Origin: Nitrospirota bacterium
GTDB taxonomy: Bacteria; Nitrospirota; UBA9217
Direction of reading: 5' to 3'
DNA length: 64,000 nt
Assembly: GCA_035516155.1 (NCBI GenBank)
Contig: DATJAP010000011.1
Coordinates: 38,288-102,287 of the forward strand
Shown: piece after piece, positions 37,349 through 62,436 of the stretch
Layout: each line of letters starts with the position of its first letter
Position numbering within the stretch: position 1 is the first letter of the stretch
Program-made: the position numbers and the translations under genes
Notes under the pieces: generated by a model
What the model was told of the DNA's origin: nothing
What the model saw: the letters and a program-made list of their open reading frames with translations, nothing else
Database searches by the model: none

Positions 37349-37381
37349 TGTCGAAATTATATGGGACGTCTATTACGGAGG

Positions 37382-39759: not shown

Positions 39760-39839
39760 ATTGCATGAAATTGAGGCATGTTTGAGACTTAATGGCTTAT
39801 GACTATCGCAAACATCACGGGAGTGGATTTCTTTGTTAT

Positions 39840-39857: not shown

Positions 39858-40233
39858 CGGCTGTTTTACAATTACTACGGTTGCGCCATGCTGGGGACTC
39901 CTGACGCCCGGCGCATGATCTGAGCAATGCCTTTGATTTCACTTCGACGACTTCATCCGGGCATTGAAGAGATAGAGTCAAAATCTTACCAATACTTAAG
40001 ACACGGAGTGGACCGGGAAGCGCTTAATACACGAATATTTATACGCTTCCTGCGTTTTTGCTCTATCACTATTCACCACGTTTTGAATTATATTGTACCC
40101 ACTAATTTACTCGTGGTAAAATAGCAATATTGGACGCATTCCCCTAATCCGAAGGATTTTGGGAGGATGGCGAATGCGCGTATTTCAGCCGGCGCATATC
40201 AATACTATTTGCATGGAAGTTCTAAGAGGAGTT

Positions 40234-41513: not shown

Positions 41514-42224
41514 TCATTCCCCCTCGACATAGTATCCCACGCCACGCCGCGTTTTCACAAACAGGGGCCGGGCCGGGTCGTCTTCAATATGTGTCCTCAG
41601 CCTTCTGATATGGACGTCGACCGTCCTGGGTTCAACGAACGTGTCATCCTGCCACAACGCATCGAGCAACTGGTCGCGGCTGAACACCTTCCCTCTGCGT
41701 TCAACGAGATAGAGAAGGAGCCTGAACTCGGTTGAACTCAGGTTCAGCGGAACATTGTTTTTGCTTACGATGTAGCGTTCCTTGTCGATGCGTAGATTGT
41801 GGACGGTGAGGACACTTTCCTGCGTTTTCCTGCCGGCTCCTCTCCGGAGTACGGCATTTACGCGGGCAGTGAGTTCCTTGGGGCTGAACGGCTTCGTCAT
41901 GTAGTCGTCGGCACCTGTTTCGAGGCCCTGTACCCTGTCGGTTACATCGCTTTTGGCCGTCAGCATGATGATCGGCATAGATGCCGTTTTCGGATTGCTT
42001 CGAATTATGCGGCAGAGCTCGGTTCCCTGAAGGCCCGGAAGCATAAGGTCGAGAATGACAAGGCTGTATCCGCCTTTCTTGATCTTATCTAGGGCCTCCT
42101 CGCCATCGGACGCAGAGGAAACTTTGAACCCTTCCCGTGTGAGATTATAGGTGACAAGCTCCACAAGATCGGGTTCATCATCAACAACGAGTATACGTAT
42201 TGTCTGCGCAGCGGCTACGCTCAT
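41514..42224 (-). CDS. OmpR/PhoB-family response regulator (PhoB-like)
   Basis: Receiver: RILVVDDEPDLVELV...LVILDLMLPG...MLTAKSDVTDRVQGLETGADDYMTKPFSPKEL, near-identical to the PhoB signature. Winged helix: STEFRLLLYL...FVEPRTVDVHIRRLR...VKTRRGVGY. Confidence 0.85.
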   Translation of the reverse strand: MSVAAAQTIRILVVDDEPDLVELVTYNLTREGFKVSSASDGEEALDKIKKGGYSLVILDLMLPGLQGTELCRIIRSNPKTASMPIIMLTAKSDVTDRVQGLETGADDYMTKPFSPKELTARVNAVLRRGAGRKTQESVLTVHNLRIDKERYIVSKNNVPLNLSSTEFRLLLYLVERRGKVFSRDQLLDALWQDDTFVEPRTVDVHIRRLRTHIEDDPARPLFVKTRRGVGYYVEGE

Positions 42225-45303: not shown

Positions 45304-48300
45304 GTGATCCAGACCGTTCATGCCGCGGTTAAAGGGCGTGTCCGTTATAAAGTTGATGGGCTCTATCGTTCGGAATCATTGAAACAGCATATTGAGCAAG
45401 GTCTCGTTCAGCACGAAGGGATCCTAAACGTTTCCGTCAACACGCTGACGGGCTCGGTTCTCATATTGTACGATATACGGAACGGCAATGGCAATGATGC
45501 AGTTGCCGTGGCCGGACTCCTCAAAGAGATCGTCGAAAGTCACCCAGCGGGCTCCTCAGCCGGCGGGGTGGAGAGAGAGAAGAGGAGACCTCGCGCCGTC
45601 GCTGCTTCGCCCATCACGCGGAGCGATGATCCCGGGTTTGCCCGCGGTAGTACGCCTCCGGTGCATCCGCAAGCAGGAGGAAAAAATCCGAGCCTGCGAA
45701 AAGTTAGGTCGCAAGTCGTCCATGCTGAGGAACAGCCTGAAGATCTCTGGCACTGCATGACGAGGCAGGAAGTTCTGCATCAGTGGGATGCCTCCGGCTC
45801 AACAGGCCTGTCTTTGGAATCCGCTTTGAGACGTGCAGCTCAATACGGTCCAAACCTCTTGCCGGAATCGGTTCCCCGATCCGGGTGGAGCATCTTCTTC
45901 GACCAGTTCAAATCCCTTCCCGTTGGCCTTCTCGGAATAGCCGCAGGCATATCAGTCTTCACGGGTGGCATTGCCGATGCTGTCGTGATCCTCGGCGTCG
46001 TGATGATTAATGCTGCCATCGGATATACGACCGAAAGGCAGACGGAAAAAACCATTCACGGTCTTAAGAGCCTCGTCCAGCCGGTGTCAACGGTCATTCG
46101 CGGCAATGCGCTGCAGGATATCGACGCCAAAGACATCGTGCCGGGCGACCTGCTCGTTCTCAGGCCCGGCAGCTATGTTGCCGCCGACGCCCGGCTTCTG
46201 GATTTGAATTATCTCAGCGTTGATGAATCAGCGCTGACTGGCGAGAGCATGCCGGTCAATAAGACAAAAGGGAAGCTGCAGTCGCCCGATATCCCGCTTG
46301 GCGACCGGACGAACATGGTGTATATGGGCACCCTTGTCACCGGAGGTCAGGGCCTTGCCGTTGTTGTGGCGACAGGCCGCTATACGGAGATGGGGAAGAT
46401 CCAGACTCTTGTGGGAACAGCGCGTCCTCCCGACACCCCCATGGAACGGCAGATGGACAGAATGGGCATTCAACTGGTCATCATCAGCAGTGCGGTATGC
46501 GGCATCGTGTTCATCATAGGGCTGCTGCGCGGCTATGGTTTTCTCCAGATGCTTAAAACCTCCATTGCACTGGCTGTTGCCGCGGTGCCCGAGGGTCTGC
46601 CGACCATAGCCACAACAACGCTGGCACTCGGCATCAGGCGCATGCGGGAATTAAATGTTCTTATTCGTCACCTTGACGCCGTGGAGGCTCTCGGTGCCGT
46701 TCAGACCATCTGTCTTGATAAAACCGGGACCATTACCATGAATCGCATGTCGGTCGTCGAGGTTCATGCCGGCCTGCGCCGTTTTACGGTATTCGACGGC
46801 AGGATTTCCGCCGATGGTACCACCATTAATCCCTATTCCAACGACGAAATCCTCCGCCTTGTCCATCTGTCGGTCCTCTGCAATGAATCAACGGTATCGA
46901 GACAGGAAGGCGAATATTCGGTTCAGGGCTCCTCGACGGAAAATGCCCTGGTTCATATGGCGCTCGCGGTCGGCGTCGACGTTAATGCGCTCCGGTCTCA
47001 GTATTCGCTGGTCAAAATCAACCACCGTTCCGAAGACCGTCATTACATGAGCACCATTCACCGTGCTGGTGAGGGACAGGGGTTGCTGGCTCTGAAGGGA
47101 AGCCCTTCCGAAGTGCTATCGATGTGTCAATGGTATCTCAAGGACGGTGAGAGGCTTTTACTTGATGACCATGCGCGGGAATTACTGGACAAGGAAAATG
47201 AACGGATGGCCGGTGATGCGCTCCGCGTGCTCGCGGTCTGCTATGCCCTGGCCGACGAGAAGGCGCTGAACAACGGCGATGGCTTCGAAGAAGGGCTCAC
47301 CTGGGTCGGGCTGGTAGGCATGGCTGATGTCGTTCGCGCCGGTGTAAAGAACCTCATGGGGACCTTTCATCGCGCGGGGATTGATACGGTCATGATTACC
47401 GGCGACCAGGGACCGACGGCCTATGCCATAGGAAAGGAACTCAACCTCAGCAAGGACGAAGAGCTGGAAATCCTGGACTCGAGCCATCTTTCTCAGCTGG
47501 ATCCTGAAGTCATGACGGCTCTCGCGGGACGGGTCAATGTCTTCGCACGGGTGAGCCCGGCAAACAAACTCCAGATCGTGCAGGCGCTCCAGTCGGCCGG
47601 TAAGGTCGTGGCCATGACCGGAGACGGCATCAATGATGGACCGGCACTCAAAGCGGCCGATATCGGCATTGCCATGGGCCACACGGGCACCGATGTGGCG
47701 AGAGAGGTGGCAGATGTCGTACTGGAGGACGATAATCTTGAAACCATGGTGATCGCCATCAGTCAGGGCCGGACGGTTTACAACAATATCAGAAAGTCAG
47801 TCCGGTTCCTTCTTGCGACGAACATGAGCGAGATCATGGTGATGTTTACCGCGATGGCGGGAGGAATGGGACAGCCGCTAAATGTCATGCAGCTTCTCTG
47901 GATCAACCTGATTTCGGATATCTTCCCCGGACTGGCGCTGGCCCTTGAGCCGCCAGAGCCCGATATCCTGTCCCGGCCTCCGCGCAATCCGAATGAACCA
48001 ATCATCAAACCCGGGGACTTCAAACGGATCCTTTTCGAGTCATCCACCATTTCCGCCGGGTCCTTGGCGGCTTATGGTTATGGCCTCGCACGATATGGTC
48101 AGGGGGCCGAGGCGGGAAGCATGGCATTCATGAGCCTCTGTACGGGTCAGCTTTTGCACGCGATCAGCTGCCGTTCCGAAACGCACAGCATCTTCGATTC
48201 CGACCGGCTAGCAACGAACAAGTATCTTACCGTGGCCCTCGCGGGTTCCCTCAGTATCCAGACCGCAACCATGTTCGTCCCGGGCCTGCGGCGGTTCCTC

Positions 48301-48480
48301 GGTTTAAGCCCGCTGGGGCCAGTGGACGCCTTAATAGCCATAGGGAGCGCAGTCGTGCCGCTTCTCATTAACGAAGCAACAAAGACACGCGCCATTACCG
48401 TTCCACAGCAGACGAAACAGGGCGATTCCCCAGTCGCAGCCGGGGAGCCGGAAAACATTCGTTTAGACGCGGTTATGTGA
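45304..48480 (+). CDS. P2-type (SERCA/PMCA-like) cation-transporting P-type ATPase with an N-terminal HMA2-like domain
   Basis: - GTG start after AAAGGGGGG.
- N-terminal KGRVRYKVDGLYRS...GILNVSVNTLTGSVLILYD.
- Core motifs LTGESMPV, ICLDKTGTITMN, TGDGINDGPALKAADIGIAMG and TM4 AVPEGLPT (P2-type rather than the CPC/SPC of P1B). Confidence 0.9.
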   Translation: MIQTVHAAVKGRVRYKVDGLYRSESLKQHIEQGLVQHEGILNVSVNTLTGSVLILYDIRNGNGNDAVAVAGLLKEIVESHPAGSSAGGVEREKRRPRAVAASPITRSDDPGFARGSTPPVHPQAGGKNPSLRKVRSQVVHAEEQPEDLWHCMTRQEVLHQWDASGSTGLSLESALRRAAQYGPNLLPESVPRSGWSIFFDQFKSLPVGLLGIAAGISVFTGGIADAVVILGVVMINAAIGYTTERQTEKTIHGLKSLVQPVSTVIRGNALQDIDAKDIVPGDLLVLRPGSYVAADARLLDLNYLSVDESALTGESMPVNKTKGKLQSPDIPLGDRTNMVYMGTLVTGGQGLAVVVATGRYTEMGKIQTLVGTARPPDTPMERQMDRMGIQLVIISSAVCGIVFIIGLLRGYGFLQMLKTSIALAVAAVPEGLPTIATTTLALGIRRMRELNVLIRHLDAVEALGAVQTICLDKTGTITMNRMSVVEVHAGLRRFTVFDGRISADGTTINPYSNDEILRLVHLSVLCNESTVSRQEGEYSVQGSSTENALVHMALAVGVDVNALRSQYSLVKINHRSEDRHYMSTIHRAGEGQGLLALKGSPSEVLSMCQWYLKDGERLLLDDHARELLDKENERMAGDALRVLAVCYALADEKALNNGDGFEEGLTWVGLVGMADVVRAGVKNLMGTFHRAGIDTVMITGDQGPTAYAIGKELNLSKDEELEILDSSHLSQLDPEVMTALAGRVNVFARVSPANKLQIVQALQSAGKVVAMTGDGINDGPALKAADIGIAMGHTGTDVAREVADVVLEDDNLETMVIAISQGRTVYNNIRKSVRFLLATNMSEIMVMFTAMAGGMGQPLNVMQLLWINLISDIFPGLALALEPPEPDILSRPPRNPNEPIIKPGDFKRILFESSTISAGSLAAYGYGLARYGQGAEAGSMAFMSLCTGQLLHAISCRSETHSIFDSDRLATNKYLTVALAGSLSIQTATMFVPGLRRFLGLSPLGPVDALIAIGSAVVPLLINEATKTRAITVPQQTKQGDSPVAAGEPENIRLDAVM

Positions 48481-48644: not shown

Positions 48645-49844
48645 ATGAAAAAAGATTTCATGTTTACCTCGGAATCGGTGACGGAAGGCCATCCTGACAA
48701 GCTGTGCGACGTCATCAGCGATGCCATCGTGGACCATTTCCTTCAGCAGGATCCGTTTGCGAATATTATTGCCGAATGCGCGGTTGCAACGGCCATTGTG
48801 TTTATCGCGGCGCGATTTTCCTCGCCGGTCAGAGCCGACTTCGCGAACATCGCCCGCCAGGTCATCAATATGGTCGGCTATGATCAAAAGGCGTTCAATT
48901 CCAAGACCTGCAGCATTATAACGAGTCTCAAGGAGTTTCCCGACGGAGTTCGGAGAGGTATCGATGAACTAACGATGACGGAGGACGAGCTCGAACGGGT
49001 CAGTGTGCGGAACCAGGTCACAGTCTTCGGATTTGCCTGCAATCAGACGTCGGCGTTCATGCCTCTCCCCATATGGCTCGCGCACCGGCTTGCCCGAAAG
49101 CTGACGTCCGTAAGGCTCCAGAAGATTCTGCCCTATCTCGCGCCCGATGGAAAAACGCAGGTGGGCGTGGAATACCGGAACGGCAGTCCCTCCCGCATTC
49201 ACAGCATAACGGTCATTGCAAGCCAGGAACGTTCTCCGGAAAAAGGCGGACCAAACGGGGGAAAACTTACTGATGATATCAGGGAGGCGGTAATCAATAC
49301 GGTTTTCCAGGACGAGGTGGTGAAGCCGGACGACAAAACGCGGATTTTCGTCAATCCGGAAGGCCCCTTCATCCAGGGCGGCCCCTCGGTGCATTCGGGG
49401 CTCACGGGAAGGAAAAACGCGATTGACACCTATGGAGAATATTCGCGCCACAGCGGGTCGGCGCTGACCGGCAAAGACCCTTCGCGGATCGACCGGATCG
49501 GGGCTTATGCCGCCCGCTATGCGGCGAAAAATGTGGTTGCGGCGGGACTGGCCACGTCCTGTGAAGTTCAGCTCAGCTACTCAATCGGTTTTTCGCGTCC
49601 CGTGAGCGTCCAGGTGGAAACCTTCGGGACCGGCGTAATATCCGATGAAAAGATAGCCGACCTGGTGGAGAAACATTTCGATTTCCGTCTGGCGGGGATC
49701 ATCCGACAGTTCAATCTGCGATACCTGCCATCGCAGGTCAAGGGGGGGTTCTATCGCAAACTCGCGGCCTACGGTCAGGTAGGAAGAATGGACATCGGCC
49801 TCCCTTGGGAGCTAACGGACAAGGCCGCTCTCCTGAAGAAATGA
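48645..49844 (+). CDS. metK: S-adenosylmethionine synthetase
   Basis: FTSESVTEGHPDKLCDVISDAIVD, GLTGRKNAIDTYG and TGKDPSRIDRIGAYAARY are MetK signatures. It is somewhat divergent from the enterobacterial sequence. Confidence 0.9.
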   Translation: MKKDFMFTSESVTEGHPDKLCDVISDAIVDHFLQQDPFANIIAECAVATAIVFIAARFSSPVRADFANIARQVINMVGYDQKAFNSKTCSIITSLKEFPDGVRRGIDELTMTEDELERVSVRNQVTVFGFACNQTSAFMPLPIWLAHRLARKLTSVRLQKILPYLAPDGKTQVGVEYRNGSPSRIHSITVIASQERSPEKGGPNGGKLTDDIREAVINTVFQDEVVKPDDKTRIFVNPEGPFIQGGPSVHSGLTGRKNAIDTYGEYSRHSGSALTGKDPSRIDRIGAYAARYAAKNVVAAGLATSCEVQLSYSIGFSRPVSVQVETFGTGVISDEKIADLVEKHFDFRLAGIIRQFNLRYLPSQVKGGFYRKLAAYGQVGRMDIGLPWELTDKAALLKK

Positions 49845-50773: not shown

Positions 50774-50813
50774 GTTTACAGTAGTGTGACAGTTGCATTA
50801 AACTTCCATTACG
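50774..50813 (+). promoter_or_regulatory. Weaker 11-bp-phased array GTTTACA / TGTGACA / CATTAAA / CATTACG
   Basis: The heptamers start at 50774, 50785, 50796 and 50807, between the mini zinc-ribbon ORF and mgtA. Confidence 0.3.
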
Positions 50814-51130: not shown

Positions 51131-53770
51131 ATGATGCCTCCCTTTGTTTCTAAAAAAAATGCGGCGAAACCCATTGAGATGACTCAGAGTGAGCAGGATC
51201 TTCTCGCTATATGCGCTCTCACTCCAGAGGCGGCTCTTGCAACGGTCGGCGTATCAGAGAGGGGATTGGATCCCGATCAGGTGCGCGACCGGCGGACACG
51301 CTTCGGTTGGAACGCGACCGCAAATCACAAAAAAACGGGTTTTCTTTATGAAATCTATCAGCGCTGCAAAAACCCCCTTGTTATTCAGCTTCTGGTCATT
51401 GCAGCGATCTCCTTCGCTATGGGTGATCTTCGCGCGACGGTTATGGTCGCTGCCATGGCCCTCCTGAGTGTGGGGCTCGGTTACTATCAGGAATCACGGG
51501 CGGACCGTGCGGTGGAAAAGCTTCAAGCCATGGTGCGCACAACCTGTGTCGCGATGCGCGAGGGAAAAGAAACAGAGCTTCTCATGGACCAATTGGTTCC
51601 CGGTGACATCGTCATCCTCGCGGCAGGAGACATGATCCCAGCCGATTTGCGCCTTCTCAGCACCAAGGATTTTTTCGTAAGCCAGTCCGTGCTTACAGGG
51701 GAGTCGATGCCGGTCGAAAAAATGGCTGCCGCAGCAGCCACGTCCACTCAGAACGGTTTGGAATTAGCAAATGCCTGCTTTCAGGGGAGCAACGTCCTGA
51801 GCGGGTCGGCGCGTGGGCTTGTGGTTAACACCGGCAACAGAACTTACTTCGGCTCAATTTCAAAGAATCTTTCTTCACTGCGCGTCCTGACCAATTTTGA
51901 CAAAGGAATCAATGCCTTCACCTGGCTGATGATCCGTTTCATGATCGTCATGGTGGCGGTGGTTTTCCTCATTATCGGCATCACAAAGCACAACTGGCTG
52001 GAGGCGCTGCTGTTCGGCCTTGCCGTGGCCGTCGGACTTACCCCGGAGATGCTCCCGATGATTGTGACGGTCAATCTATCGAAGGGAGCGCTCGCGATGT
52101 CGCGGAAGAAAGTAATCGTCAAGAGACTCAACGCCATTCAGAACTTCGGCGCTATGGACGTATTCTGCACGGACAAGACCGGCACGCTTACTCAGGACCG
52201 CGTCGTACTCGAAAAGTATGTTGATGTAACAAACCGCCAAAGCGATGACGTGCTTCGCTATGCGTACCTGAACAGCTACTACCAGACGGGTCTGCGTAAC
52301 CTGCTAGACCGGGCCATCCTGGAACACGGCGAACTTGATGTCGAGCGCACCTGCCGGAAGGTGGACGAAATTCCTTTTGATTTTTCGCGGAAGCGGATGT
52401 CGGTGATCATCGATTATGAAGGCGCTCACGTGCTCATCTGCAAGGGAGCGGTGGAGGAAATGTTCGTTGTCTGCGACCACTACCAGGTTGATGAGGAAAT
52501 CCATCCTCTCATCGAAATGCTTAAAAAAGATCTCATGGAAGAGTACCGGGCTCTGAGCGCAGACGGCTACCGGGTCCTGGCAATCGCATACCGAGAGTAT
52601 CCCCAGACCCAACAGGTCTTTTCCGCGGTGAATGAATCCGGCTTGATACTTTTAGGATATGTAGCTTTTTTCGATCCGCCGAAGGATTCCGCCCTCAAGG
52701 CGCTGGCGGAATTGCGCCGTGTGGGAGTATCCACCAAGATTCTCACCGGCGACAATGAACTCGTGACACGGAAAGTGTGCCGTGATGTCGGCTTGGAGAT
52801 TGAGGGAATTGTAACCGGTCCGCAGCTCATCGGCCTCAGCGACGACGAGCTGACGGAGCTGGCGGAAAAATCCACGGTGTTTGCCCGTTTATCACCGCTT
52901 CAGAAAGAGCAGCTGATTCGCGCCATGCATCGGGGTGGTCATGTTGTCGGATTTCTGGGAGACGGCATCAATGATGCACCGGCAATGAGAGCCGCCGATG
53001 TGGGTATTTCCGTCGACACCGCAGTCGATGTGGCTAAGGAATCGGCGGACATCATCCTCCTGGAAAAAGACCTTTCCGTTTTGGAGCAGGGGACCCTCGA
53101 GGGTCGCAAAGTATTCGGCAACATTATCAAATATATTAAAATGGGCGCAAGCTCCAATTTCGGCAATATGTTCAGCGTTGTCGGAGCCAGCCTTTTCCTG
53201 CCTTTTATTCCCATGGCGCCGATTCAGGTATTGGTCAACAACCTTCTTTATGATCTTTCCCAGTCCGGCATCCCAACGGACAAGGTGGATGACGAATTTC
53301 TGGAAAAACCCCGCCGCTGGAACATTAACAGCATCAAAAAGTTCATGCTGTATATCGGTCCCACAAGCTCGGTGTTCGACTACACGACGTATGCCCTGAT
53401 GCTTTTTGTTTTTCACTGCGCGCGTTACTCCCTCCCGGGGGTGTCGGATAATTCCAAAGTCTATTATGAGAGTCTTTTCCACACAGGGTGGTTTGTCGAA
53501 TCAATATTGACCCAGACGCTCATCGTGCACGTTATTCGGACCAATCGGATACCATTTATCCAGAGCAGGGCCAGCGCCGCCCTGACGCTGACCACGCTCA
53601 CCGTCATGGCCGCGGGAATCATCCTGCCCTATTCGCCGCTGGCGGATTATCTTGGCTTCGTAAGACTCCCCGCCGCGTACTGGCTGTGGATCGTAATGAC
53701 CCTCACGGCCTACGTGTCATTGACGCACTACGTCAAAACTTGGTTTGTTCGCAAATTTGGAGGCGATTAG
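51131..53770 (+). CDS. mgtA: Magnesium-translocating P-type ATPase
   Basis: YYQESRADRAVEKLQAMV, LTGESMPVEK, FCTDKTGTLTQDRV, TM4 LTPEMLPMIVTV and GDGINDAPAMRAADVGISV. The length (879 aa) and motifs are typical of MgtA/MgtB. Confidence 0.9.
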   Translation: MMPPFVSKKNAAKPIEMTQSEQDLLAICALTPEAALATVGVSERGLDPDQVRDRRTRFGWNATANHKKTGFLYEIYQRCKNPLVIQLLVIAAISFAMGDLRATVMVAAMALLSVGLGYYQESRADRAVEKLQAMVRTTCVAMREGKETELLMDQLVPGDIVILAAGDMIPADLRLLSTKDFFVSQSVLTGESMPVEKMAAAAATSTQNGLELANACFQGSNVLSGSARGLVVNTGNRTYFGSISKNLSSLRVLTNFDKGINAFTWLMIRFMIVMVAVVFLIIGITKHNWLEALLFGLAVAVGLTPEMLPMIVTVNLSKGALAMSRKKVIVKRLNAIQNFGAMDVFCTDKTGTLTQDRVVLEKYVDVTNRQSDDVLRYAYLNSYYQTGLRNLLDRAILEHGELDVERTCRKVDEIPFDFSRKRMSVIIDYEGAHVLICKGAVEEMFVVCDHYQVDEEIHPLIEMLKKDLMEEYRALSADGYRVLAIAYREYPQTQQVFSAVNESGLILLGYVAFFDPPKDSALKALAELRRVGVSTKILTGDNELVTRKVCRDVGLEIEGIVTGPQLIGLSDDELTELAEKSTVFARLSPLQKEQLIRAMHRGGHVVGFLGDGINDAPAMRAADVGISVDTAVDVAKESADIILLEKDLSVLEQGTLEGRKVFGNIIKYIKMGASSNFGNMFSVVGASLFLPFIPMAPIQVLVNNLLYDLSQSGIPTDKVDDEFLEKPRRWNINSIKKFMLYIGPTSSVFDYTTYALMLFVFHCARYSLPGVSDNSKVYYESLFHTGWFVESILTQTLIVHVIRTNRIPFIQSRASAALTLTTLTVMAAGIILPYSPLADYLGFVRLPAAYWLWIVMTLTAYVSLTHYVKTWFVRKFGGD

Positions 53771-54844: not shown

Positions 54845-55216
54845 TTACAACAATATTGCCAGGAACGATAAACCCGTTCCCTGCAGCGCGGATTCGATAA
54901 CAGCGCCGGTAACCGCCTTCGTGACGACGTTGAATGCCTTTGTGGTTGCCCGGTGAATCACTTGATCGTTGGTGACGGTTTTTTCAGGATGGTAAAAACC
55001 AGCCCGCTCGAGAGTGTTCAGGATGTCCTGATGCCGGATTTCAGCGGCATTATAATGAATCAAAAGACTGCCTGTCGTGGTATTGAATTCGGCCGTGCCT
55101 ATTCCGTGGCCCATGTTCACAAGAGTTTTTTGTACCTCATAATGTACGGCGCTGTTTTTAAACAACGGATTTTTGAGTCGCAACCTTCCGGGGACATTAT
55201 GAACATAGCAATTCAC
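54845..55216 (-). CDS. HMA2-like domain protein with a short hydrophobic C-terminus
   Basis: The GTG at 55216 follows GGAGG (9-nt spacer) and gives NCYVHNVPGRLRLKNPLFKNS...GIGTAEFNTTTGSLLIHYNAAEIRHQDILNTLERAGF. An upstream ATG at 55252 is an alternative start. It overlaps the zinc-ribbon gene stop by 20 nt. Confidence 0.55.
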   Translation of the reverse strand: MNCYVHNVPGRLRLKNPLFKNSAVHYEVQKTLVNMGHGIGTAEFNTTTGSLLIHYNAAEIRHQDILNTLERAGFYHPEKTVTNDQVIHRATTKAFNVVTKAVTGAVIESALQGTGLSFLAILL

Positions 55217-55535
55217 GATGTGAAACCTCCTTCTTGTAAGGAATTTTTTCATAGGTTTTGCATACCGGATAATCCGAGCATCTGAATCGCAACCCTTGTT
55301 TATCATGCATATACAAGTGCATTTTCAGGCCGCACTGCGGACAGGTAGGACGATTTTCCAATTCATTTCGTGCAAAGCCGAGAACGAACTGCCTTCCACA
55401 AAGCACACATTTCAGGCGCTGCTTGCCGGTTTTGACATGGCCATACTTATATACAGCCTCAGAGCGGCACACGGGACATCTAAATTCACCTGTAGCCCTC
55501 ATCCTTGCACACCTTTCTTTGTACGTTATAATCAT
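55197..55535 (-). CDS. Double zinc-ribbon protein (paralog of 42268-42555)
   Basis: CPVC-x16-C-x2-CG-x-QF, then RPTCPQCGLKMHLY...LRFRCSDYPVCKTY. The real start may be Met12 (55502), matching the paralog's N-terminal length. Confidence 0.6.
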   Translation of the reverse strand: MIITYKERCARMRATGEFRCPVCRSEAVYKYGHVKTGKQRLKCVLCGRQFVLGFARNELENRPTCPQCGLKMHLYMHDKQGLRFRCSDYPVCKTYEKIPYKKEVSHRELLCS

Positions 55536-55545: not shown

Positions 55546-55585
55546 TATTACAACTCTATGACGGAAATGTTACAATTGTGTTACA
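55546..55585 (+). promoter_or_regulatory. Four 11-bp-phased heptamers TATTACA / TATGACG / TGTTACA / TGTTACA
   Basis: The heptamers start at 55546, 55557, 55568 and 55579. The array contains GAAATGTTACA (55564-55574). It lies immediately upstream of the zinc-ribbon/HMA2 gene pair. Confidence 0.5.
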
Positions 55586-55632
55586 TTTATCATTGCCATG
55601 AACGTCTATCAGGACTCGCAATTTGGCATATT

Positions 55633-56949
55633 TCATGATAGGCAGACTTCGGCAATTTCCTGCTCAATTGATTTCATATCACTTATTCGTGTTTCCCCGA
55701 AAAGGGCGAGCTTTGCGAAATTAGGCGGCAAGCGGCAGTCAAAGGAGTCACAGGCCAGAAAGTATTTTATATCGTCAGCCCAAATTCTTCTGAACGGTCC
55801 ATCCAGCATCATCCTGCGGTAGAAAAGATACGGCGAAGTAAAGAGCGAAATCAAGGGGCCGATCATTTCCGAGGGATCTCTGAAGCACTCCCAGTGGCAT
55901 TTCCGGCACGAAGAAAGCCGGTTGAGCTCCGACAGGTCGAGATCCCAAAACTTCCCCAAATCCTCGCCACCGCGGTATCCACAGGGATAGGTGTTGCCGT
56001 CACGGGCGTTTACGAAGAGATAATCGATCCCACCTCTGCAGGCGAAGCCGTATTCCGGATTTATCTGCTGGCGCATGAGGGAATAGAGAGAACTTCTCGG
56101 CGAAAATATTCTTATGTGGCGCCTGAATTCGGGGATCGTGTGAAAGAGGGCTTTGAACAGCAATGACTTTTCCTCTGCCGTGTAATGGGTGATGCCGGTG
56201 GTATTTGTCGCTCCATATACGGCAGATAGTCCGCTGGCGTCGCCGTTGTCAATGCTCATCGGATAGCAGGCATTCACGATCGTAAATCCCATATCGATGA
56301 TCCGTTGGTAGAATTTCTGGAATGATTGTCGGTAGTAAGCGTAGAATTGCGCAGGACCTGAAAACGGCTGCTGAACAAAGCCCCCCATATTCCTGTTGAT
56401 GCCGAGGTTCGCGGACGGGTAAATGCCATGGGCATGGAAAAGCGGGAGTGCTTTTTCGATACCGGCTATAACCCTGGGAAGTCCTCTCATCGATTCGTGG
56501 ACAGCGGGGTCCACCGAGTCGATGCTTATCCAGAATGTATATAGACCGGCATCAGCTAGTTTTCCAGCCAGCTTTTTTACTCCGTCCAGATAGCCCCGCT
56601 TCTCCGGGTTCGCAAAGAGATAACCATTGGTGCCGGTCCTGGTGTATGTTATCCCCGCGCTTCTTGCGTATTTCAACAAATCGGTAATCTCGTCCAGATA
56701 TAGCAGCGGCTCACCGCCCGTAAAGGAAAGCGCTTTGACTCCCTTCCGCGCTGCGGCATCGATAATCTTTGTTGCCGTGGCCTTGTCGAGTTTAGATCGT
56801 TTGAAGGGTTCCGTCACGCGCATAGAGCACTGCGGGCACCGGGCGTTGCATGCATCGGTATATTGCACGACGAGCTGCCTGATACCCCGGTCGCGCACGA
56901 GTGGAAAGAGCGCGGTGATTGAGGGCATGCTTTTTTTAAGCGTATGCAT
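55633..56949 (-). CDS. Radical SAM enzyme with a Cys-rich C-terminal region
   Basis: DACNARCPQCSM matches CxxxCxxC. FTGGEPLL SAM-binding motif. C-terminal CGYRGG...SCRKCHWEC suggests an auxiliary cluster. Confidence 0.8.
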   Translation of the reverse strand: MHTLKKSMPSITALFPLVRDRGIRQLVVQYTDACNARCPQCSMRVTEPFKRSKLDKATATKIIDAAARKGVKALSFTGGEPLLYLDEITDLLKYARSAGITYTRTGTNGYLFANPEKRGYLDGVKKLAGKLADAGLYTFWISIDSVDPAVHESMRGLPRVIAGIEKALPLFHAHGIYPSANLGINRNMGGFVQQPFSGPAQFYAYYRQSFQKFYQRIIDMGFTIVNACYPMSIDNGDASGLSAVYGATNTTGITHYTAEEKSLLFKALFHTIPEFRRHIRIFSPRSSLYSLMRQQINPEYGFACRGGIDYLFVNARDGNTYPCGYRGGEDLGKFWDLDLSELNRLSSCRKCHWECFRDPSEMIGPLISLFTSPYLFYRRMMLDGPFRRIWADDIKYFLACDSFDCRLPPNFAKLALFGETRISDMKSIEQEIAEVCLS

Positions 56950-56972
56950 CTTGGCTGGACGTCCGTTGCCCG

Positions 56973-59384
56973 CTATCCGACGGTCTGGATCTCATGGCTG
57001 AGTATTGTGGAGTATACTTCATGTTCGCGTGGGCTGTTGGACTCGATAAACAGTCTCGCCTCTTTGCCCATGGCGGAGGCCATCCTTCTGTCCGATGCGA
57101 ACAGCTGCATTACATTGACCAATGCATCAATGCCTTCAGTTTTGACGATAAAGCCGCTCAGGCCGTCTTTGAGTAGTTCCTTCGGCCCGCCCTGATCGGA
57201 CACGACAACAGGAAGACCCGATGCCTGGGCTTCCAGAACGACGTTGCCGAAGGTGTCCGTGGTGCTCGGGAAAACAAAAACGTCGGCAGAGGCGTATGCC
57301 CTGGACAGCTCTTCTCCTGCTAGGAACCCTGTGAATAGCACCGAATATCCTTCCAGCTTCTTTTCGAGCTCCTTCCTGTACGGGCCGTCACCGACAATTA
57401 TAAGAGTACTTCTGTCGCCGGAATCAATCAGGCCCGTGAATGCATTGGCCAGGAGTTCCAGGTTCTTCTCCCTTGACACCCTGCCTACATAAAGGAACTT
57501 CAGTTCGTCGCCCAGACCATGGCTGCGCCAAAAAGTCGGGTCTCTTTTTCCCGGAGAAAACATTTTTGTGTCGACCCATCGCGGCAGGGGTTTGACCTTG
57601 GAGGACACCAGCCCCCGTTCGATGAGTTGTGAGCGTGTGCTCGCAGAGGGAACCATGACTTCGTCCATGAGGTTGTAGAACCATATCATGTAATTCCAAG
57701 CCACATCTTCCAGGAACGAATCGTTCGTCAGGCTTCCCACATATTGGGGGATGTCCGTGTGATAGGCGCCGGAGATCGGAATGTCCATAAGCTTAGAGAT
57801 GAAGAGGGAGAGTATGCCGAGCGTTCCGGGTGTACTGGCATGAATTCTAGTAAAGCTCTCCCGGTCGAAATAATCGATAATATCGAGCATCGGCGGAAAA
57901 TGGAGCTTTAAATCAGGATATTCGGGAAGGGAGAACTCTCCGACAGACTTGAAGTTCATCACCCCGTTCCTGAAGCCCGTATCTTGTTCGCTTGCGGTGA
58001 TGACGATCAGCTCAATGTCCCGCTTTTTTGCAGTCTCTATAAGTCGCTTTATGGTGATGGCGACTCCATTGATCTCATTCAGCGTATCTGTGAAGAGCGC
58101 GATTTTCTGGCGACCTCCCGCGCTGGCCGGGAGAGCGAACCGGGTAGCGAGTTCCTTTACCAAGGCCTTACTCCTGTGCTGGTGATGAAATGCAACATAA
58201 TACGGCGAGGCAAGGAGATGGATGAAACCGATGGTTCCTAAGGAATTGAAGAGCTCCATGATGCCGGTCGATGGATATTCCCTCGTAAGACGTTCAGTAT
58301 AGATATAAACAAGCCTGTTGACAAGATAGCTTGTTACGGAAAAGACCTTTCTGTTGATGTCACCGCTGTTAAGGGAACGAAGAAAACCTGCGTCATTCAG
58401 AAGCCGCCTCGCTTCCCGATCGAGGATTTGCTCAAAAGTTTTTCCATCATGTCCGTTGTATACTTCCGGGATATTTTTTTTAATAAAGAGGCTCAGCTTA
58501 TCAAAGAAAGATGATTTCCGGTCATCGGCGCTTAACACACGGTTCAGAAGGGCGTTGATGAAGGGGAATTGATTCGTTCGCTTCGGCTCGATCTTTTCCT
58601 TGAAGAAGCGGTACCCAATTCCATAAATGCTGTGCGATAAAGTGAGGGCATCGCCGTCCTCGCCCTCCGCCCAGACCTCCCGCCGGCTTAGAGAATCCAT
58701 AAATGCCTGAAGAGTCTCTCCCCGGGAGGACGCTGTATAAGCCCGTCCGACGAAAAAACCACTATGATCGTCGGAGCCGCCAACCATAGCTTTCTTCCAG
58801 GGTTCGCCACCATAAGGGATGATGTCGTACTTGTCAGCCATCCGTTCGATGCGCTGAGCAGTCAGTGATGCGACGAGGTCGCTGATGCAGCTGTTGTACC
58901 TGTTTGAGCGGGATCCGTTTATCGTCTCGAAAGCATTGAACAGCAGTAACATTTTTTCAACCGTATCGGCAGTGAGCCTCGAGTTCATATCGTAGAGAAG
59001 ATGAGCGAGAAAATGGACGACGTTGTGCTTACGAAAATATCCCACAAGCTCATAGACGTTATTCCGCAGATGCATGATATCTCTGAACCTGTCTTCGGCT
59101 ATGTCCAGAGCCACGACATGCAGTTTGCAACCATCGTCGGGCAGGTAGGTCGTCACTTCAGCACTGATGAATGCTCCCGGAAGGTGGGCGATTTCAAGCG
59201 CCCCCGTAATCGAGTTGTGATCGCTGATCGTAACGTAGTCCATGCCCCTCTTCAGCGCCGTATGGTAAATGAATTCGGGTTTCGTGTAGCTCTCCGGACA
59301 ATTGAATTTACGCAGAGCCCAGCTGGAGGGTTTGTTTGAGTGGCGTGAATGGACATGCAGATCGGCTTTATAGGTTTTTGGCAT
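56973..59384 (-). CDS. Fusion protein: N-terminal PHP phosphoesterase domain + C-terminal GT4 (GT-B) glycosyltransferase
   Basis: N-terminal ADLHVHSRHSNKPS, VTISDHNSITG and GGSDDHSG (PHP motifs). C-terminal GRVSREKNL...PSTTDTFGNVVLEAQASGLPVVVSDQGGPKELL (EX7E-type GT4 motif). Confidence 0.8.
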   Translation of the reverse strand: MPKTYKADLHVHSRHSNKPSSWALRKFNCPESYTKPEFIYHTALKRGMDYVTISDHNSITGALEIAHLPGAFISAEVTTYLPDDGCKLHVVALDIAEDRFRDIMHLRNNVYELVGYFRKHNVVHFLAHLLYDMNSRLTADTVEKMLLLFNAFETINGSRSNRYNSCISDLVASLTAQRIERMADKYDIIPYGGEPWKKAMVGGSDDHSGFFVGRAYTASSRGETLQAFMDSLSRREVWAEGEDGDALTLSHSIYGIGYRFFKEKIEPKRTNQFPFINALLNRVLSADDRKSSFFDKLSLFIKKNIPEVYNGHDGKTFEQILDREARRLLNDAGFLRSLNSGDINRKVFSVTSYLVNRLVYIYTERLTREYPSTGIMELFNSLGTIGFIHLLASPYYVAFHHQHRSKALVKELATRFALPASAGGRQKIALFTDTLNEINGVAITIKRLIETAKKRDIELIVITASEQDTGFRNGVMNFKSVGEFSLPEYPDLKLHFPPMLDIIDYFDRESFTRIHASTPGTLGILSLFISKLMDIPISGAYHTDIPQYVGSLTNDSFLEDVAWNYMIWFYNLMDEVMVPSASTRSQLIERGLVSSKVKPLPRWVDTKMFSPGKRDPTFWRSHGLGDELKFLYVGRVSREKNLELLANAFTGLIDSGDRSTLIIVGDGPYRKELEKKLEGYSVLFTGFLAGEELSRAYASADVFVFPSTTDTFGNVVLEAQASGLPVVVSDQGGPKELLKDGLSGFIVKTEGIDALVNVMQLFASDRRMASAMGKEARLFIESNSPREHEVYSTILSHEIQTVG

Positions 59385-59644
59385 ACCTTATTTTATAGAC
59401 ACGAGATATTACACGCCGATTACCATTGTATGAAGATTTGATGAAGTCTAGGGCAGGTGCACTCCGTGGACAAACGCTTAGGATCATTTGGAAAAGACCA
59501 GTCTCCGGGGAAACCTTCAGCGCTAGCATCTCCGGGCGTCGGGTCAGGAAATATCGCCGCACAGTCATATTTACGTAACATTCGGGACGTATAATGTCTG
59601 TTACCAGGCGTTAAAATCATACCTGTATCAAAGGAGAGGAGGAC

Positions 59645-60040
59645 ATGTTTAATAACGGTTACGAAAAAAGAAAAGAAATGCGTTATGACAATATATCGCT
59701 AATTGATTATGTGGTCCCTGGTCAGGAGGACGATTTGCGGACGGCGGTAACGAGAAACGTTAGCGAGGGTGGACTGAATGTCTGTTTATTCGAGCCTCTT
59801 CCCATTGGACAGGAGCTCATTATCAAAAGAATGCTCCCCGTTGGCAGCAGTTCGGCAACTATCTGCTGGATCAAGAAGGAAGCTGAAAGATTTTACAAGG
59901 CGGGGATGAAATTCAGAGCAACGTTCTCTGCTGCAGGCCACGAGAAAGAGTCCGTGGTTTCTGCCGACAACGAGGCAAAGATGTCGATCGGGGTGACATG
60001 TCAGTTATTATCAGCGTATAATGTTATGGTAACTAGTTAA
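59645..60040 (+). CDS. PilZ-domain protein (putative c-di-GMP receptor)
   Basis: RKEMR (RxxxR) followed ~30 aa later by NVSEGG (D/NxSxxG). GGAGAGGAGG RBS. Confidence 0.7.
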   Translation: MFNNGYEKRKEMRYDNISLIDYVVPGQEDDLRTAVTRNVSEGGLNVCLFEPLPIGQELIIKRMLPVGSSSATICWIKKEAERFYKAGMKFRATFSAAGHEKESVVSADNEAKMSIGVTCQLLSAYNVMVTS

Positions 60041-60108: not shown

Positions 60109-62436
60109 TTACCCAAAAAGACTTTCAATACTCAGAAGTTTGCCAAAATCCCAGATATTCATATAAAAACCGTCGAGGCGATAATTTCTGATTTGCTGCT
60201 CCTCGCGATACCAGAAAAAAAGATCGCTTGCCGGATAGAGATAGCCGAACTGGTAGGAAGTAAAATCTTTTCTCCTCCGCGCAATCAATTCCACGGGGTA
60301 GCGGTACATCGATTCCTCCTGATGGACAAGAGACAGCGCCTGCTCCCGCTTCGATGCCGCTTCCGCCAGGTATTGCTCTGATGGTCCGCTTTTTTCTGAT
60401 GCCTCATTCTTCTTCGCGATCAATGCCCTGATGGTCAACGCCCTGTGCTCCGCCCTGAGCGCGGTTAATTCAAGGCCATTTATCAGCCCGTCCAAAAGGA
60501 CACGTCCTTCGGGAACCGCGCTTGCTGAGACATGGTAATCCTGTTTCGACAGAAGGCGCAGGTTCGTCACCAGTGTGTTTGCTTTCTCGGCATATTCCAC
60601 GAGCATCGTAACAGGTCCCCGCAGGACCTCATCTGCTTCGGCGTCCGATGCGCTATGCAGAAGCCATTGATAGGAAAACGGCAGTCTCGGTTGAAAAGGC
60701 CTGTTGAACGGCCAGGGTAGCTCGGATGATGGGTCCAGGGCCGAGAGAAAAGGCATCAGACGTAGCTCTTTGAAGTATTGGTTTTGAAGCGTGAGGGCTG
60801 CATGCCAAGCGCGGAAAATCCGCTGGTCGGGAAATAAATCTCGGATCATTGCCAGCGGCTCGACAGGTTTTTCTCTCTCTCCTTCGATATGCCTCCAGGA
60901 CCAACGGGCGATGCTCCAGTCAACGAGCCAATATCCCCACTCCCAGCCAGAACTGAAGGTGAGGTGGTTGTCTACACCCAGCTTTTTCAAGGCCTCCATA
61001 TCAGACAGCCGCGTTTCGAGATAGGACAGGAGAAACAAGGGCACTGAATTATCGAATGCAACCCAGTAGGAAGACTCCGGCCAATACCAGGTTTCCCGCA
61101 TCTGGTTTTCGATTCTTGCCCTGGCTAACATGTGCCGCTGGTTGATGTTCCCGTAGACAGGCGCGTAAGATTCCGACAGGGAATAGCACATCACGGTATG
61201 GATCAGGATACCGGTTTTCAGCGAGGATCCCTCGTATGATTTATATGGCTGAGCGGGTTGAATTTCTTCGGCATTCTTGGGCGCTTTTTTGTTGTTATCC
61301 GGGATGACGTGTGTTGCAAAAAACATTTTTGTTCCATAATCGTTCGTGATGCGTTTGACGATATATTCCCTGAGTGATGGGCAAATACGCCCGATATCTG
61401 GCAAATATTCTCCCATTGTGAAATCGACGCTTACAAAGTCCCATTTGACGCGGAACAGCCAAGAAAGGGCTTCGTCGATCTGGTGTCGATAGGAAGGGAA
61501 AAATTTCAGCAGGTGAACTGCCGTGAAAGCCCTTTGCTGAATGCTGGAAAGGGAGAATTCTACGCCCATAAGGATGCCTCTCCGGTGCGCATAGGCGACG
61601 AACTCTTCTGCGTGTGCAAGCCATCGATCTCGGTCAACGCCGCGGAGTAGATAAAACTGGAAAGTATTCTGCTGATTTCGCGCAAGCCAGTCTATATACT
61701 CCTTGACTTCCGCCGCGGCATGGGGATAGTCAGGATTGTGTATCTGCTCCGTCAGTTCAATGGGATGCAAGGTATGTAGGTGAAAACCCTTCTTATCGAA
61801 GCGGGGTATAGCCTTCCAGCGGAAATCGGCTGTCAGCGGCCAGACGTCATGAAAGGGGATGAGCGTTCGCTTGGGATGATAGAACTTAAATCCCAACTTC
61901 TCCTGGAGCAGGCCGTACAGACCGAAGCTTACTCCTTGACAGGACGGGGTGATCAATTTGCAAATGATCCTGCCTGACTCGCGGGAGGAAATCCATTCAT
62001 ATGAATGCTCCGGATAGGGGAGATAATCATAGGGATGATGCAAGGCAAATGGGGAAGGTTTGCCTTGGCGCTCTTGGTCTATTGCAGGCAGGACAATATG
62101 CACGTCGGCGGCGGAGTTGTTCAGGCGCACCGGTACAGTCGGGAACCCCGCCCTCAATAGTTGGCGCACGTCATCGATGGTTATGCGGGTAAGAGGATTT
62201 TCGAGGAGGCCGCGGGGAACGTCAATGCTGATTGCATGCAGGGGGACGGCTTTACTTGACGCATATACAGCCGCGCGAGCAAGCCACAAAATAGATGCGC
62301 TTATGATGGGCCTGAGTGATAAAATTGTGATAACATCCCTCTTATGCGCATGAGAAGATGCCTTTGAAAAGCATCCCCCATCAGAGTGACCTCTTTTTTT
62401 TATTAATAACGTATACATCATATCACAGTTTTCCAT
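60109..62436 (-). CDS. Large hypothetical protein, possibly a glycoside-hydrolase-like (GH20/DUF4838-like) fold
   Basis: N-terminal hydrophobic anchor (IISASILWLARAAVYA). GLYGLLQEKLGFKFYHP...AIPRFDKKGFHLHTLHP resembles the entry to TIM-barrel hexosaminidase-like enzymes and the 1475-4099 protein. The assignment is weak. Confidence 0.35.
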   Translation of the reverse strand: MENCDMMYTLLIKKRGHSDGGCFSKASSHAHKRDVITILSLRPIISASILWLARAAVYASSKAVPLHAISIDVPRGLLENPLTRITIDDVRQLLRAGFPTVPVRLNNSAADVHIVLPAIDQERQGKPSPFALHHPYDYLPYPEHSYEWISSRESGRIICKLITPSCQGVSFGLYGLLQEKLGFKFYHPKRTLIPFHDVWPLTADFRWKAIPRFDKKGFHLHTLHPIELTEQIHNPDYPHAAAEVKEYIDWLARNQQNTFQFYLLRGVDRDRWLAHAEEFVAYAHRRGILMGVEFSLSSIQQRAFTAVHLLKFFPSYRHQIDEALSWLFRVKWDFVSVDFTMGEYLPDIGRICPSLREYIVKRITNDYGTKMFFATHVIPDNNKKAPKNAEEIQPAQPYKSYEGSSLKTGILIHTVMCYSLSESYAPVYGNINQRHMLARARIENQMRETWYWPESSYWVAFDNSVPLFLLSYLETRLSDMEALKKLGVDNHLTFSSGWEWGYWLVDWSIARWSWRHIEGEREKPVEPLAMIRDLFPDQRIFRAWHAALTLQNQYFKELRLMPFLSALDPSSELPWPFNRPFQPRLPFSYQWLLHSASDAEADEVLRGPVTMLVEYAEKANTLVTNLRLLSKQDYHVSASAVPEGRVLLDGLINGLELTALRAEHRALTIRALIAKKNEASEKSGPSEQYLAEAASKREQALSLVHQEESMYRYPVELIARRRKDFTSYQFGYLYPASDLFFWYREEQQIRNYRLDGFYMNIWDFGKLLSIESLFG

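Follow-up and report, generated by a model that had tools for sequence, protein, structure and literature searches.

A 64,000-nucleotide stretch of a Nitrospirota genome (contig DATJAP010000011.1 of assembly GCA_035516155.1, positions 38,288 to 102,287 of the forward strand; hereafter the window) encodes an 803-aa protein that joins a PHP-type phosphoesterase domain to a GT4 glycosyltransferase (GT), with a radical SAM enzyme gene directly downstream. The reading we favour, and to which we give a little better than an even chance, is that this fusion is the anaerobes' Agt, that its PHP domain most likely supplies diacylglycerol (DAG), that the radical SAM enzyme most likely tailors the glycolipid, and that the module belongs to the Pho regulon. 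Agt enzymes swap membrane phospholipids for phosphorus-free glycosyl-DAGs (glucosyl- and/or glucuronosyl-DAG) when phosphate is scarce. This swap is a major bacterial answer to phosphate scarcity, known so far as the PlcP-plus-Agt pathway of aerobic proteobacteria. The fusion family appears to be the anaerobes' version of it, widespread in sulfate reducers, Geobacter, Nitrospirota and anammox bacteria, and the groups that bear it are thought to supply the abundant monoglycosyldiacylglycerol (MGDG) of anoxic water columns.

In the proposed mechanism, an amphipathic helical region would hold the trinuclear-metal PHP domain at the membrane surface, where it would hydrolyse a phospholipid (phospholipase-C-type) or phosphatidate (PA-phosphatase-type) to release DAG in situ together with freed phosphate. 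The fused PHP domain would thereby stand in for the enzymes (PlcP, PlcH or PAP2) found alongside Agt-type GTs in other bacteria. By homology, the C-terminal GT-B domain would then transfer a sugar from a UDP-sugar to the DAG. The radical SAM enzyme, with auxiliary Fe-S clusters and putatively co-transcribed in Nitrospirota, Planctomycetota and some Bacillota, would tailor the glycolipid, probably on its sugar head group. Since phased TGTWACA repeats of the PhoB/PhoP type precede the module in many lineages, it would be placed in a regulon for phosphate starvation that also takes in OlsF (ornithine lipid), PsiE and a PHP-GT21 pair. The parts concerned lie in the window as follows.

56973–59384, minus strand: PHP-helical-GT4 fusion, 803 aa, anaerobe-type Agt in our reading (ORF, Pfam, homologues, structure model)
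58650–59384, minus strand: PHP metal-dependent phosphoesterase domain, aa 1–245 (Foldseek, invariant ligands, weak PF02811)
58140–58649, minus strand: helical region, aa 246–415, with amphipathic or moderately hydrophobic helices (secondary structure of the models)
57015–58112, minus strand: GT4 (GT-B) glycosyltransferase domain, aa 425–790, assigned to the Agt/GTcp clade (Pfam, Foldseek, motifs, homology)
55633–56949, minus strand: radical SAM enzyme, 438 aa, with a SPASM/twitch-like Cys-rich C-terminal half (PF04055, invariant Cys, adjacency)

The PHP-glycosyltransferase fusion

Two Pfam domains span the GT half, Glyco_transf_4 (residues 438–607, 69 bits against a cutoff of 28.5) and Glycos_transf_1 (residues 625–777, 121 bits against 26.4). 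In Foldseek, this half superposes on BshA, MshA and PimB' with a TMt of about 0.75, and GT-B matches dominate the search with the full-length model (pLDDT 84.2, pTM 0.80). The Agt/GTcp clade of DAG-dependent GT4 enzymes is defined by the motifs GRVAxEKN and FPSxTDTFG, and where the common EX7E motif has its first Glu, this clade has an Asp that is essential (PMC8231724). The window protein carries GRVSREKN at residues 634–641 and FPSTTDTFG at 705–713, with key residues invariant in 34 sequences. Its catalytic motif is D710-x7-E718, that is DX7E and not the EX7E given by an earlier, sequence-only reading of the window. H542, within YHTD, is nearly invariant in the family, aligns with the His of FHTN in a Pseudomonas aeruginosa GT and would be equivalent to the catalytic His104 of GTcp.

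A tblastn search gave that P. aeruginosa enzyme, encoded directly downstream of plcH-plcR, as the best stand-alone relative with an annotation (34% identity over 349 residues, E 5e-55, catalytic His included), and from the gene order we take it to be PA0842/Agt2. Purified Agt2 converts DAG and UDP-GlcA to glucuronosyl-DAG; this DAG:UDP-GlcA/Glc transferase is induced by phosphate stress and has a Pho box upstream (Jones et al., PMC8528852). The best NCBIfam match of the fusion, far below cutoff, is a GlcNAc-phosphatidylglycerol synthase, and the GT in the Agt2 position has the same best match with the same score. The match was rejected as evidence for a phosphatidylglycerol acceptor because the GT taken to be Agt2, a proven DAG enzyme, has it too; it only places these enzymes among lipid-acceptor GT4s.

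Clade motifs, homology to the GT taken as Agt2 and a context with OlsF, PsiE and a Pho-like array all back the sequence-only proposal of a GT4 enzyme in a phosphate-sparing glycolipid route, and assignment of the GT half as a membrane-glycolipid synthase of the Agt/GTcp clade is supported. With Agt of A. tumefaciens, GTcp of SAR11 and Agt1/Agt2 of P. aeruginosa, the fusion shares the GT-B fold and the clade motifs with their Asp; like Agt-type genes, it has Pho-box-type repeats upstream in many lineages, and it is co-located with further genes for phosphorus-free lipids. It differs from them in its about 420 extra N-terminal residues (PHP plus helical region), in the radical SAM gene that many of its lineages add and in its occurrence in strict anaerobes. 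Unlike in PlcP-Agt systems, no calcineurin-type PlcP gene adjoins it.

The sequence-only reading knew of no characterised example of the fusion, but the family very probably includes one by annotation, Dde_3613 of Desulfovibrio (Oleidesulfovibrio) alaskensis G20, whose PHP domain was never discussed. A transposon mutant in this gene lacks all MGDG and glycuronic acid diacylglycerol (GADG), and it is only when phosphate is limiting that the mutant is impaired (Bosak et al. 2016, PMC5193443). The gene is named 'agt', glycosyltransferase group I, with close homologues in many delta-proteobacteria, epsilon-proteobacteria and 'some Planctomycetes', and the main text makes no mention of PHP, phosphoesterase or phospholipase (PMC5193443). 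The reported taxonomy of the homologues fits the distribution of the fusion family, and no radical SAM neighbour of Dde_3613 is evident in the fitness table. Given the annotation link and the taxonomic overlap, the window gene is likely orthologous to a glycolipid synthase of phosphate starvation that has been validated by genetics. No Desulfovibrio member was named among the best 120 matches when a distant homologue (from locus L036) served as the query.

Sequence evidence for the PHP domain is marginal. PF02811 scores 13.5 bits on the window protein, below its gathering cutoff of 26.4, and it is matched weakly by 25 of 25 N-terminal domains of the family (E 2e-4 to 1); only PHP_C passes (22.6–24.1 bits against 21.3). 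A PDB sequence search with the N-terminal 419 residues gave no match, and a profile search gave a marginal PHP match (3e0f, E 0.48). The claim therefore needed a separate fold test, which was made on a domain-only AlphaFold model of residues 1–425 (pLDDT 79.6). All 12 Foldseek matches in the PDB at E ≤ 1e-3 are PHP phosphoesterases, among them RNase AM (7ug9, 2e-8), TM0559 (2anu), PsfC, BAD_1165 and Cv1693, and PHP domains of DNA polymerase III rank next.

The ordered metal ligands of the superfamily (HxH...H...E...H...H...DxH) are present. All three family alignments show H12, D55-H56, E76, H89, H128 and G203-S204-D205-D206-H207 without variation, and H10 varies little or not at all; this conservation reaches down to 33–39% identity, one alignment comprising 34 sequences down to 38%. 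On the predicted fold, the domain is a real, divergent member of the PHP superfamily, and since the fold is confirmed and the ligand set invariant, it is probably catalytically active. The sequence-only reading had placed PHP and GT4 domains in one 803-aa ORF and had picked out the HVH, DH and GGSDDH motifs; the ORF, the Pfam GT4 matches and the PHP fold match bear out the former, and the motifs are conserved across the alignments. With the COG0613/TrpH-type enzymes (RNase AM, the 3',5'-bisphosphonucleotide phosphatase Cv1693, TM0559) the fused domain shares the fold and the order of its His/Asp/Glu ligands, whereas its sequence similarity to them is marginal and it carries a C-terminal helical extension and an attached lipid GT.

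The helical region (aa 246–415) has no fold match in Foldseek and contains amphipathic helices at aa 293–360. No transmembrane segment was found in the fusion, the highest KD19 value being 1.45. In an exhaustive profile search, the N-terminal module was found in 688 clusters (50% identity) at E ≤ 1e-30, always at the N-terminus, and the helical region accompanies the PHP domain in all cases. Among nine module proteins of shorter or atypical length that were sampled, six carry a GT4 domain (mostly partial) and three (425–594 aa) have no Pfam match, so that the PHP-helical module appears to occur essentially only as a GT4 fusion. A tblastn search of the module against plasmids returned nothing.

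The fusion is thus no one-off: the family that homology and profile searches return comprises hundreds of clusters at 50% identity. At least 120 full-length homologues (~800 aa, 57–79% identity) come from Nitrospirota, Geobacter/Geotalea, Brocadiaceae and Thermodesulfovibrionales. With a 40%-identical deltaproteobacterial member as the query, at least 120 further full-length proteins were recovered (Desulfobacterales, Desulfatiglandaceae, Latescibacteria and others), and 5,577 of 8,000 candidates lay at E ≤ 1e-20. Such fusions make up a large family, with strong conservation, in anaerobes (Nitrospirota, Desulfobacterota, Geobacteraceae, Brocadiaceae). A literature search found no described PHP-fused lipid GT and no GT-linked lipid radical SAM enzyme in these phyla; the architecture is visible in databases and undescribed in the literature searched, while the GT function is already known.

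The radical SAM partner and the Pho-type arrays

The radical SAM gene lies 23 bp downstream of the fusion on the same strand. PF04055 matches its product with 60.9 bits (cutoff 29.5), the cluster motif C34-x3-C38-x2-C41 is invariant, and so are seven more cysteines: C228, C304-x18-C323 (G-x4-C), C348-x2-C351-x3-C355 and C400. The 438-aa enzyme, the 23-bp spacing and the extra C-terminal cysteines of the sequence-only reading are all as it had described them. The SPASM family PF13186 gave no Pfam match, and the Cys spacing differs from the canonical CX9-15GX4C...CX2CX5CX3C...C; in its Cys content this half resembles a SPASM/twitch auxiliary-cluster domain.

The enzyme belongs to a large family, with at least 50% identity among the best 120 matches. 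Gene context was compared between the window and 41 loci (L001–L041; one duplicate contig, two fragments). A radical SAM gene stands directly downstream of the fusion, on the same strand, in 22 loci (one duplicate contig) from Nitrospirota, Thermodesulfovibrionales, Dissulfurispiraceae, Planctomycetota and one unclassified metagenome-assembled genome (MAG). Reverse look-ups from the radical SAM gene found the same order in a further locus (L047) and the radical SAM gene ahead of the fusion in two others (L048, L049). In the Dehalobacterium locus L046, it accompanies a stand-alone, PHP-less GT4 gene (383 aa, 36% identity to the GT half of the fusion, E 1e-65). The constant partner of the radical SAM enzyme is the Agt-type GT4, not the PHP domain. 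The pairing noted from the sequence alone is therefore conserved, in either gene order, but the PHP domain is not its partner and it does not extend to Geobacteraceae/Desulfuromonadales.

A profile of the radical SAM family has as its best PDB relative BlsE (E 1.2e-11, 47 bits, residues 24–182), with MoaA behind, and the match is confined to the core. BlsE is a cytosylglucuronate decarboxylase. The window enzyme scores 36.6 bits on the BlsE family TIGR04466 (cutoff 400) and is not a member; the likeness is weak, and it is suggestive because Agt-type enzymes make glucuronosyl-DAG. In L046, a 135-aa ORF (2783–3190, Dehalobacterium MAG) with an N-terminal Rossmann part and a C-terminal tail lies between the GT4 and radical SAM genes. 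This UDP-glucose-dehydrogenase-like ORF was considered as support for a glucuronide substrate and discarded, being an internally deleted remnant unique to that locus.

The calditol synthase Cds (archaea) and HpnJ (hopanoids) are, by description, radical SAM enzymes that remodel a glycolipid head group and work with a glycosyltransferase on a lipid-linked hexose, and in this the present pair would resemble them. According to a 2026 review, calditol formation presumably requires an unknown phosphatase, then a glucosyltransferase and then the radical SAM enzyme Cds. These are the same three types of activity as are encoded here; in contrast to Cds, HpnJ and BlsE, the present enzyme would act on a diacylglycerol glycolipid of bacteria. 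HpnJ carries an N-terminal B12-binding domain, and Pfam found no such domain in the window enzyme, which argues against HpnJ membership. A ladderane role, prompted by a Brocadiaceae locus, was rejected since the family also occurs in Nitrospirota and Bacillota and since the radical SAM candidates for ladderane synthesis depend on B12 and are tied to fatty-acid synthesis. The 2026 review of lipid-modifying radical SAM enzymes describes nothing like this enzyme, and its pairing with a GT4 is conserved but undescribed.

Regulatory evidence comes from phased repeats. The sites and genes concerned are:

55546–55596, plus strand: array of four to five TGTTACA-type 7-mers in an 11-bp register, candidate PhoB/PhoP-type Pho box of the Zn-ribbon/HMA_2 genes
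59407–59424, minus strand: possible degenerate two-unit remnant GGTAATCggcgTGTAATA, then a TATAAAAT -10-like element (10/14, below the scan threshold)
41514–42224, minus strand: PhoB-like OmpR-family response regulator (PhoB TIGR02154, 264 bits against a cutoff of 296)
32289–39868, minus strand: second operon, a lipid operon of Pho type, with PsiE, a GH1 glycosidase, a stand-alone PHP protein (TM0559-like), GT21, an OlsF-like protein and a flippase-like LPG_synthase_TM protein

Phased 7-mer repeats at 11 bp are the typical layout of a PhoB/PhoP box. The window holds 13 matches to TGTTACA against 4 expected, and 15 pairs in 11-bp phase against 2.8. Arrays of at least three units (≥16/21) occur at three places only, namely upstream of the stand-alone PHP gene, upstream of psiE (two arrays) and at 55546–55596, while block-shuffled controls average 0.2 matches. 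In the second operon, the arrays lie at 37382–37410, 39731–39759 and 39840–39868. At the third place, four units (TATTACA/TATGACG/TGTTACA/TGTTACA, 55546–55585) are located between the stop codon of the radical SAM gene and the start of a Zn-ribbon gene; the sequence-only reading had rightly put this array and the Zn-ribbon/HMA_2 pair after the radical SAM gene. The same placement of an array is seen in L020, L037 and L005, and in L020 and L037 the Zn-ribbon/HMA_2 pair likewise lies directly behind it. The PhoB-like regulator would be a candidate binder of the arrays. An E. coli Pho box consensus is quoted in PMC8528852.

In orthologous loci, arrays lie 38–61 bp upstream of the fusion start codon (the Nitrospirota group L004–L012, L014, L018 and L028), and alignment also places them there in L009, L013 and L035. 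About a third of the 38 array matches in 712 kb of loci fall within the ~60-bp windows upstream of the fusion, and such arrays were observed in at least four lineages, against about 0.1 expected by chance on a rough estimate. The remnant GGTAATCggcgTGTAATA of the window is positionally homologous to the strong arrays of L014, L018, L004–L013, L035 and L028. Judged from these repeats, direct Pho control is well supported for the fusion family; in the window genome, which keeps only the 10/14 remnant, the fusion may or may not be under such control. The repeats run into a TATAAA-like -10 element ~8–16 bp before the fusion ATG (window 59385–59424, L014 9941–10003, L018 5908–5971). A -10-like element so close to the ATG suggests a leaderless or very short-leader mRNA in several lineages.

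Weighing the proposed pathway

We infer that the fused PHP domain would supply DAG because three lipid phosphoesterases of other folds fill the same slot and because the amphipathic region is always present. Beside Agt-type GTs, this slot holds a phospholipase C (plcH) in P. aeruginosa and a PAP2 phosphatase in Acinetobacter. P. aeruginosa also pairs PlcP with Agt1 (PMC8528852). By analogy, a PHP protein of another subfamily stands ahead of the lipid GT21 in 54 of 56 loci. PlcP (a calcineurin-like Mn phospholipase C) and PAP2 occupy the same genomic slot as the fused PHP domain and have the same proposed DAG-making role, but the PHP fold is unrelated to them (a TIM-barrel-like trinuclear metal site) and is fused, not separate. 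No Metallophos match was found by Pfam in the fusion, which on its PHP fold is not a member of the PlcP family, though it may function in a similar way.

In Acinetobacter baumannii CP035931.1 (L043, 2857–4731), an Agt-like GT4 gene whose product is 34% identical to the GT half of the fusion is followed by a PAP2 gene. The two may form another pairing of a DAG-forming phosphatase with a glycolipid synthase. They are not characterised in a paper on phosphate limitation in A. baumannii (PMC11419095).

If the PHP domain makes DAG, the PHP superfamily would gain a new activity, and lipid remodelling without PlcP in these organisms would be explained. From its conserved company, we infer that the radical SAM enzyme tailors the newly made glycolipid, and this partner points to a tailored glycolipid not yet looked for. 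The full three-step pathway, in which PHP, GT4 and radical SAM enzymes would lead in anaerobic bacteria from phospholipid or phosphatidate to DAG, to glucuronosyl- or glucosyl-DAG and to a radically remodelled head group, is tentative, and on balance we doubt it. Were it true, the product could be a pentosyl-DAG, through a BlsE-like decarboxylation, or a ring-contracted, ether-like cyclitol (compare calditol and the hopanoid cyclitol ethers). Such a product would found a new class of bacterial membrane lipids free of phosphorus and could serve as a new biomarker of phosphate-limited anoxic environments, and the PHP domain would be the first of its superfamily to act on lipids.

Several observations weigh against the reading we favour. 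We know of no PHP-superfamily member that hydrolyses lipids, and the nearest structural relatives of the fused domain (RNase AM, the pAp phosphatase Cv1693 with AMP, BAD_1165) bind nucleotides. The radical SAM gene is absent from all 16 of 16 Geobacteraceae/Desulfuromonadales fusion loci; since these carry the fusion without it, the enzyme would be dispensable for the core function. Its NCBIfam matches cover the core only and are all far below cutoffs. Dde_3613 was tied to the family by an annotation string in the paper's supplementary table, not by a sequence alignment, and D. alaskensis produces ordinary MGDG and GADG (PMC5193443). Upstream of the fusion in the window, no array was found at ≤3 mismatches in 14, and the closest relatives (L005, L020, L037) also have no array there.

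The nucleotide-binding relatives are the main argument for a different role of the PHP domain, acting on a soluble nucleotide. It would, for example, hydrolyse GT-released UDP to UMP and phosphate, or cleave some other nucleotide phosphoester, relieving product inhibition and recycling phosphate during starvation, with DAG coming from another enzyme. The fusion has no transmembrane segment, as such a role would allow, and because the fused GT4 and the adjacent GT21 are both nucleotide-sugar users, the recurrence of PHP-GT pairs is explained equally well. We nevertheless regard this role as unlikely, if worth serious attention: the slot beside Agt-type GTs elsewhere holds the lipid phosphoesterases PlcP, PlcH and PAP2, the PHP domain is always accompanied by the conserved amphipathic helical region, and bacterial GTs generally need no dedicated UDPase.

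For the radical SAM enzyme, maturation of a peptide or protein, or synthesis of a cofactor, would make the adjacent GT either the glycosylator of that product or a gene under shared regulation. The SPASM/twitch-like Cys pattern is typical of peptide maturases, many maturases of ribosomally synthesised and post-translationally modified peptides appear among the low-scoring NCBIfam matches, and the fusion works without the enzyme in Geobacteraceae. Such a function is improbable, however, since across the compared loci the radical SAM gene is accompanied by no conserved small ORF as a candidate for a peptide substrate, the surroundings beyond the pair vary by locus, and its sole constant partner is the Agt-type GT4, whether or not this carries PHP and whichever gene comes first. 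Non-peptide SPASM/twitch enzymes also exist, Tes and Gms with SPASM domains as well as BtrN and BlsE.

The logic of sucrose-phosphate synthase (SPS) and its phosphatase offers another arrangement, in which the GT would use a phosphorylated acceptor such as glycerol-3-phosphate or phosphatidylglycerol-phosphate and the PHP domain would then dephosphorylate the product. The GT4 enzymes SPS and MshA, both among the fold or profile matches, do take phosphorylated acceptors and have their products dephosphorylated later, and the best NCBIfam match is a GT with a phosphatidylglycerol acceptor. That match is uninformative on the acceptor, being shared by the DAG enzyme taken as Agt2, the fusion carries the motifs specific to DAG-GTs, and the Dde_3613 mutant loses plain MGDG and GADG (PMC5193443), which together leave this arrangement a slim chance.

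Finally, a cell-wall or exopolysaccharide GT with no part in membrane-lipid remodelling, as the JGI label 'glycosyltransferase involved in cell wall biosynthesis' and weak NCBIfam matches to exopolysaccharide and PEP-CTERM glycosyltransferases would have it, is very improbable: these matches are far below cutoffs and weaker than those to lipid GTs, no polysaccharide export or polymerase genes lie near the fusion at the compared loci, the context consists of OlsF, PsiE, PSD-like, LGT-like and GT21 genes, and both the Agt clade motifs and the Dde_3613 phenotype speak against it.

Gene neighbourhood and second operon

Apart from the radical SAM gene, the neighbours of the fusion in the window include:

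60109–62436, minus strand: UNK775, a conserved exported protein (recurrent fusion neighbour, signal-peptide-like N-termini)
55197–55535, minus strand: Zn-ribbon protein, 112 aa (Pfam/NCBIfam)
54845–55306, minus strand: HMA_2 protein, 153-aa ORF (Pfam/NCBIfam)

A UNK775 homologue lies near the fusion in 14 loci (L001, L014, L020, L023, L024, L026, L029, L031, L033, L034 and L037–L040), ten of them from Geobacteraceae/Desulfuromonadales, where the radical SAM gene is absent. The proteins are about 700–775 aa long and Trp-rich, with 60% mean column identity; neither the single sequence nor a 13-sequence profile found relatives in Pfam, NCBIfam or the PDB. A second recurrent group near the fusion in Brocadiaceae, Geobacteraceae and Desulfuromonadales is a trio or pair drawn from an unknown 806-aa protein, a PSD-like and an LGT-like protein. 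In L002 (2718–7991) and in L023, L024, L026, L030 and L034, these are an unannotated 806-aa protein, a phosphatidylserine-decarboxylase-like protein (352 aa) and an LGT-like membrane protein (350 aa). The Brocadiaceae locus also holds a sulfotransferase, a second SPASM radical SAM enzyme and a GT21.

In L014 (Thermodesulfovibrionales), PHP(TM0559-like)-GT21-DedA-DUF3047-MCP-fusion-radical SAM-UNK775-OlsF-PsiE follow one another on one strand, so that the two 'operons' of the window are merged there as a single same-strand cluster. DUF3047 and DedA/VTT-family genes adjoin the fusion module in some Nitrospirota (L014 6738–8065, L004 11827–12477). DedA proteins have been implicated in lipid flipping.

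The stand-alone PHP gene of the second operon (36656–37348) encodes a clear homologue of TM0559 (E 1.5e-63; PF02811, 33 bits) and adjoins the GT21 gene. In metagenome loci with enough sequence, GT21 directly follows it in 54 of 56. The sequence-only reading had drawn a parallel between this pair and the fusion. The pairing does recur, but the stand-alone and fused domains are not alignable (hhalign probability 2.7%), and since the two genes belong to different PHP subfamilies, the parallel holds only at the level of the fold. The OlsF-like protein of the operon is a bifunctional acyltransferase, and the operon is conserved in loci L050–L129. For the window GT21, NCBIfam ranks the hopanoid enzyme HpnI first, at 240 bits (cutoff 310).

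The Zn-ribbon protein consists of an IS1/IS1595-type zinc-binding domain only. Together with the fusion, the Zn-ribbon/HMA_2 pair was found only in the window and in L002, L017 (Zn-ribbon only), L020, L035 and L037, and it is peripheral to the fusion module. One start codon of the pair is probably mis-set, because the two ORFs as annotated overlap by 110 bp. A 131-aa PilZ-domain protein (59645–60040, plus strand) lies divergently between UNK775 and the fusion and was found in no other locus.

Farther away on the plus strand, the window encodes two P-type ATPases, one Ca-type (1058 aa, 45304–48480) and one MgtA-type (879 aa, 51131–53770; 1122 bits to TIGR01524). A SAM synthetase gene (48645–49844) lies between them, and a weak two-unit TGTTACA-like site with three mismatches (50774–50791) is located about 340 bp upstream of the MgtA-type gene.

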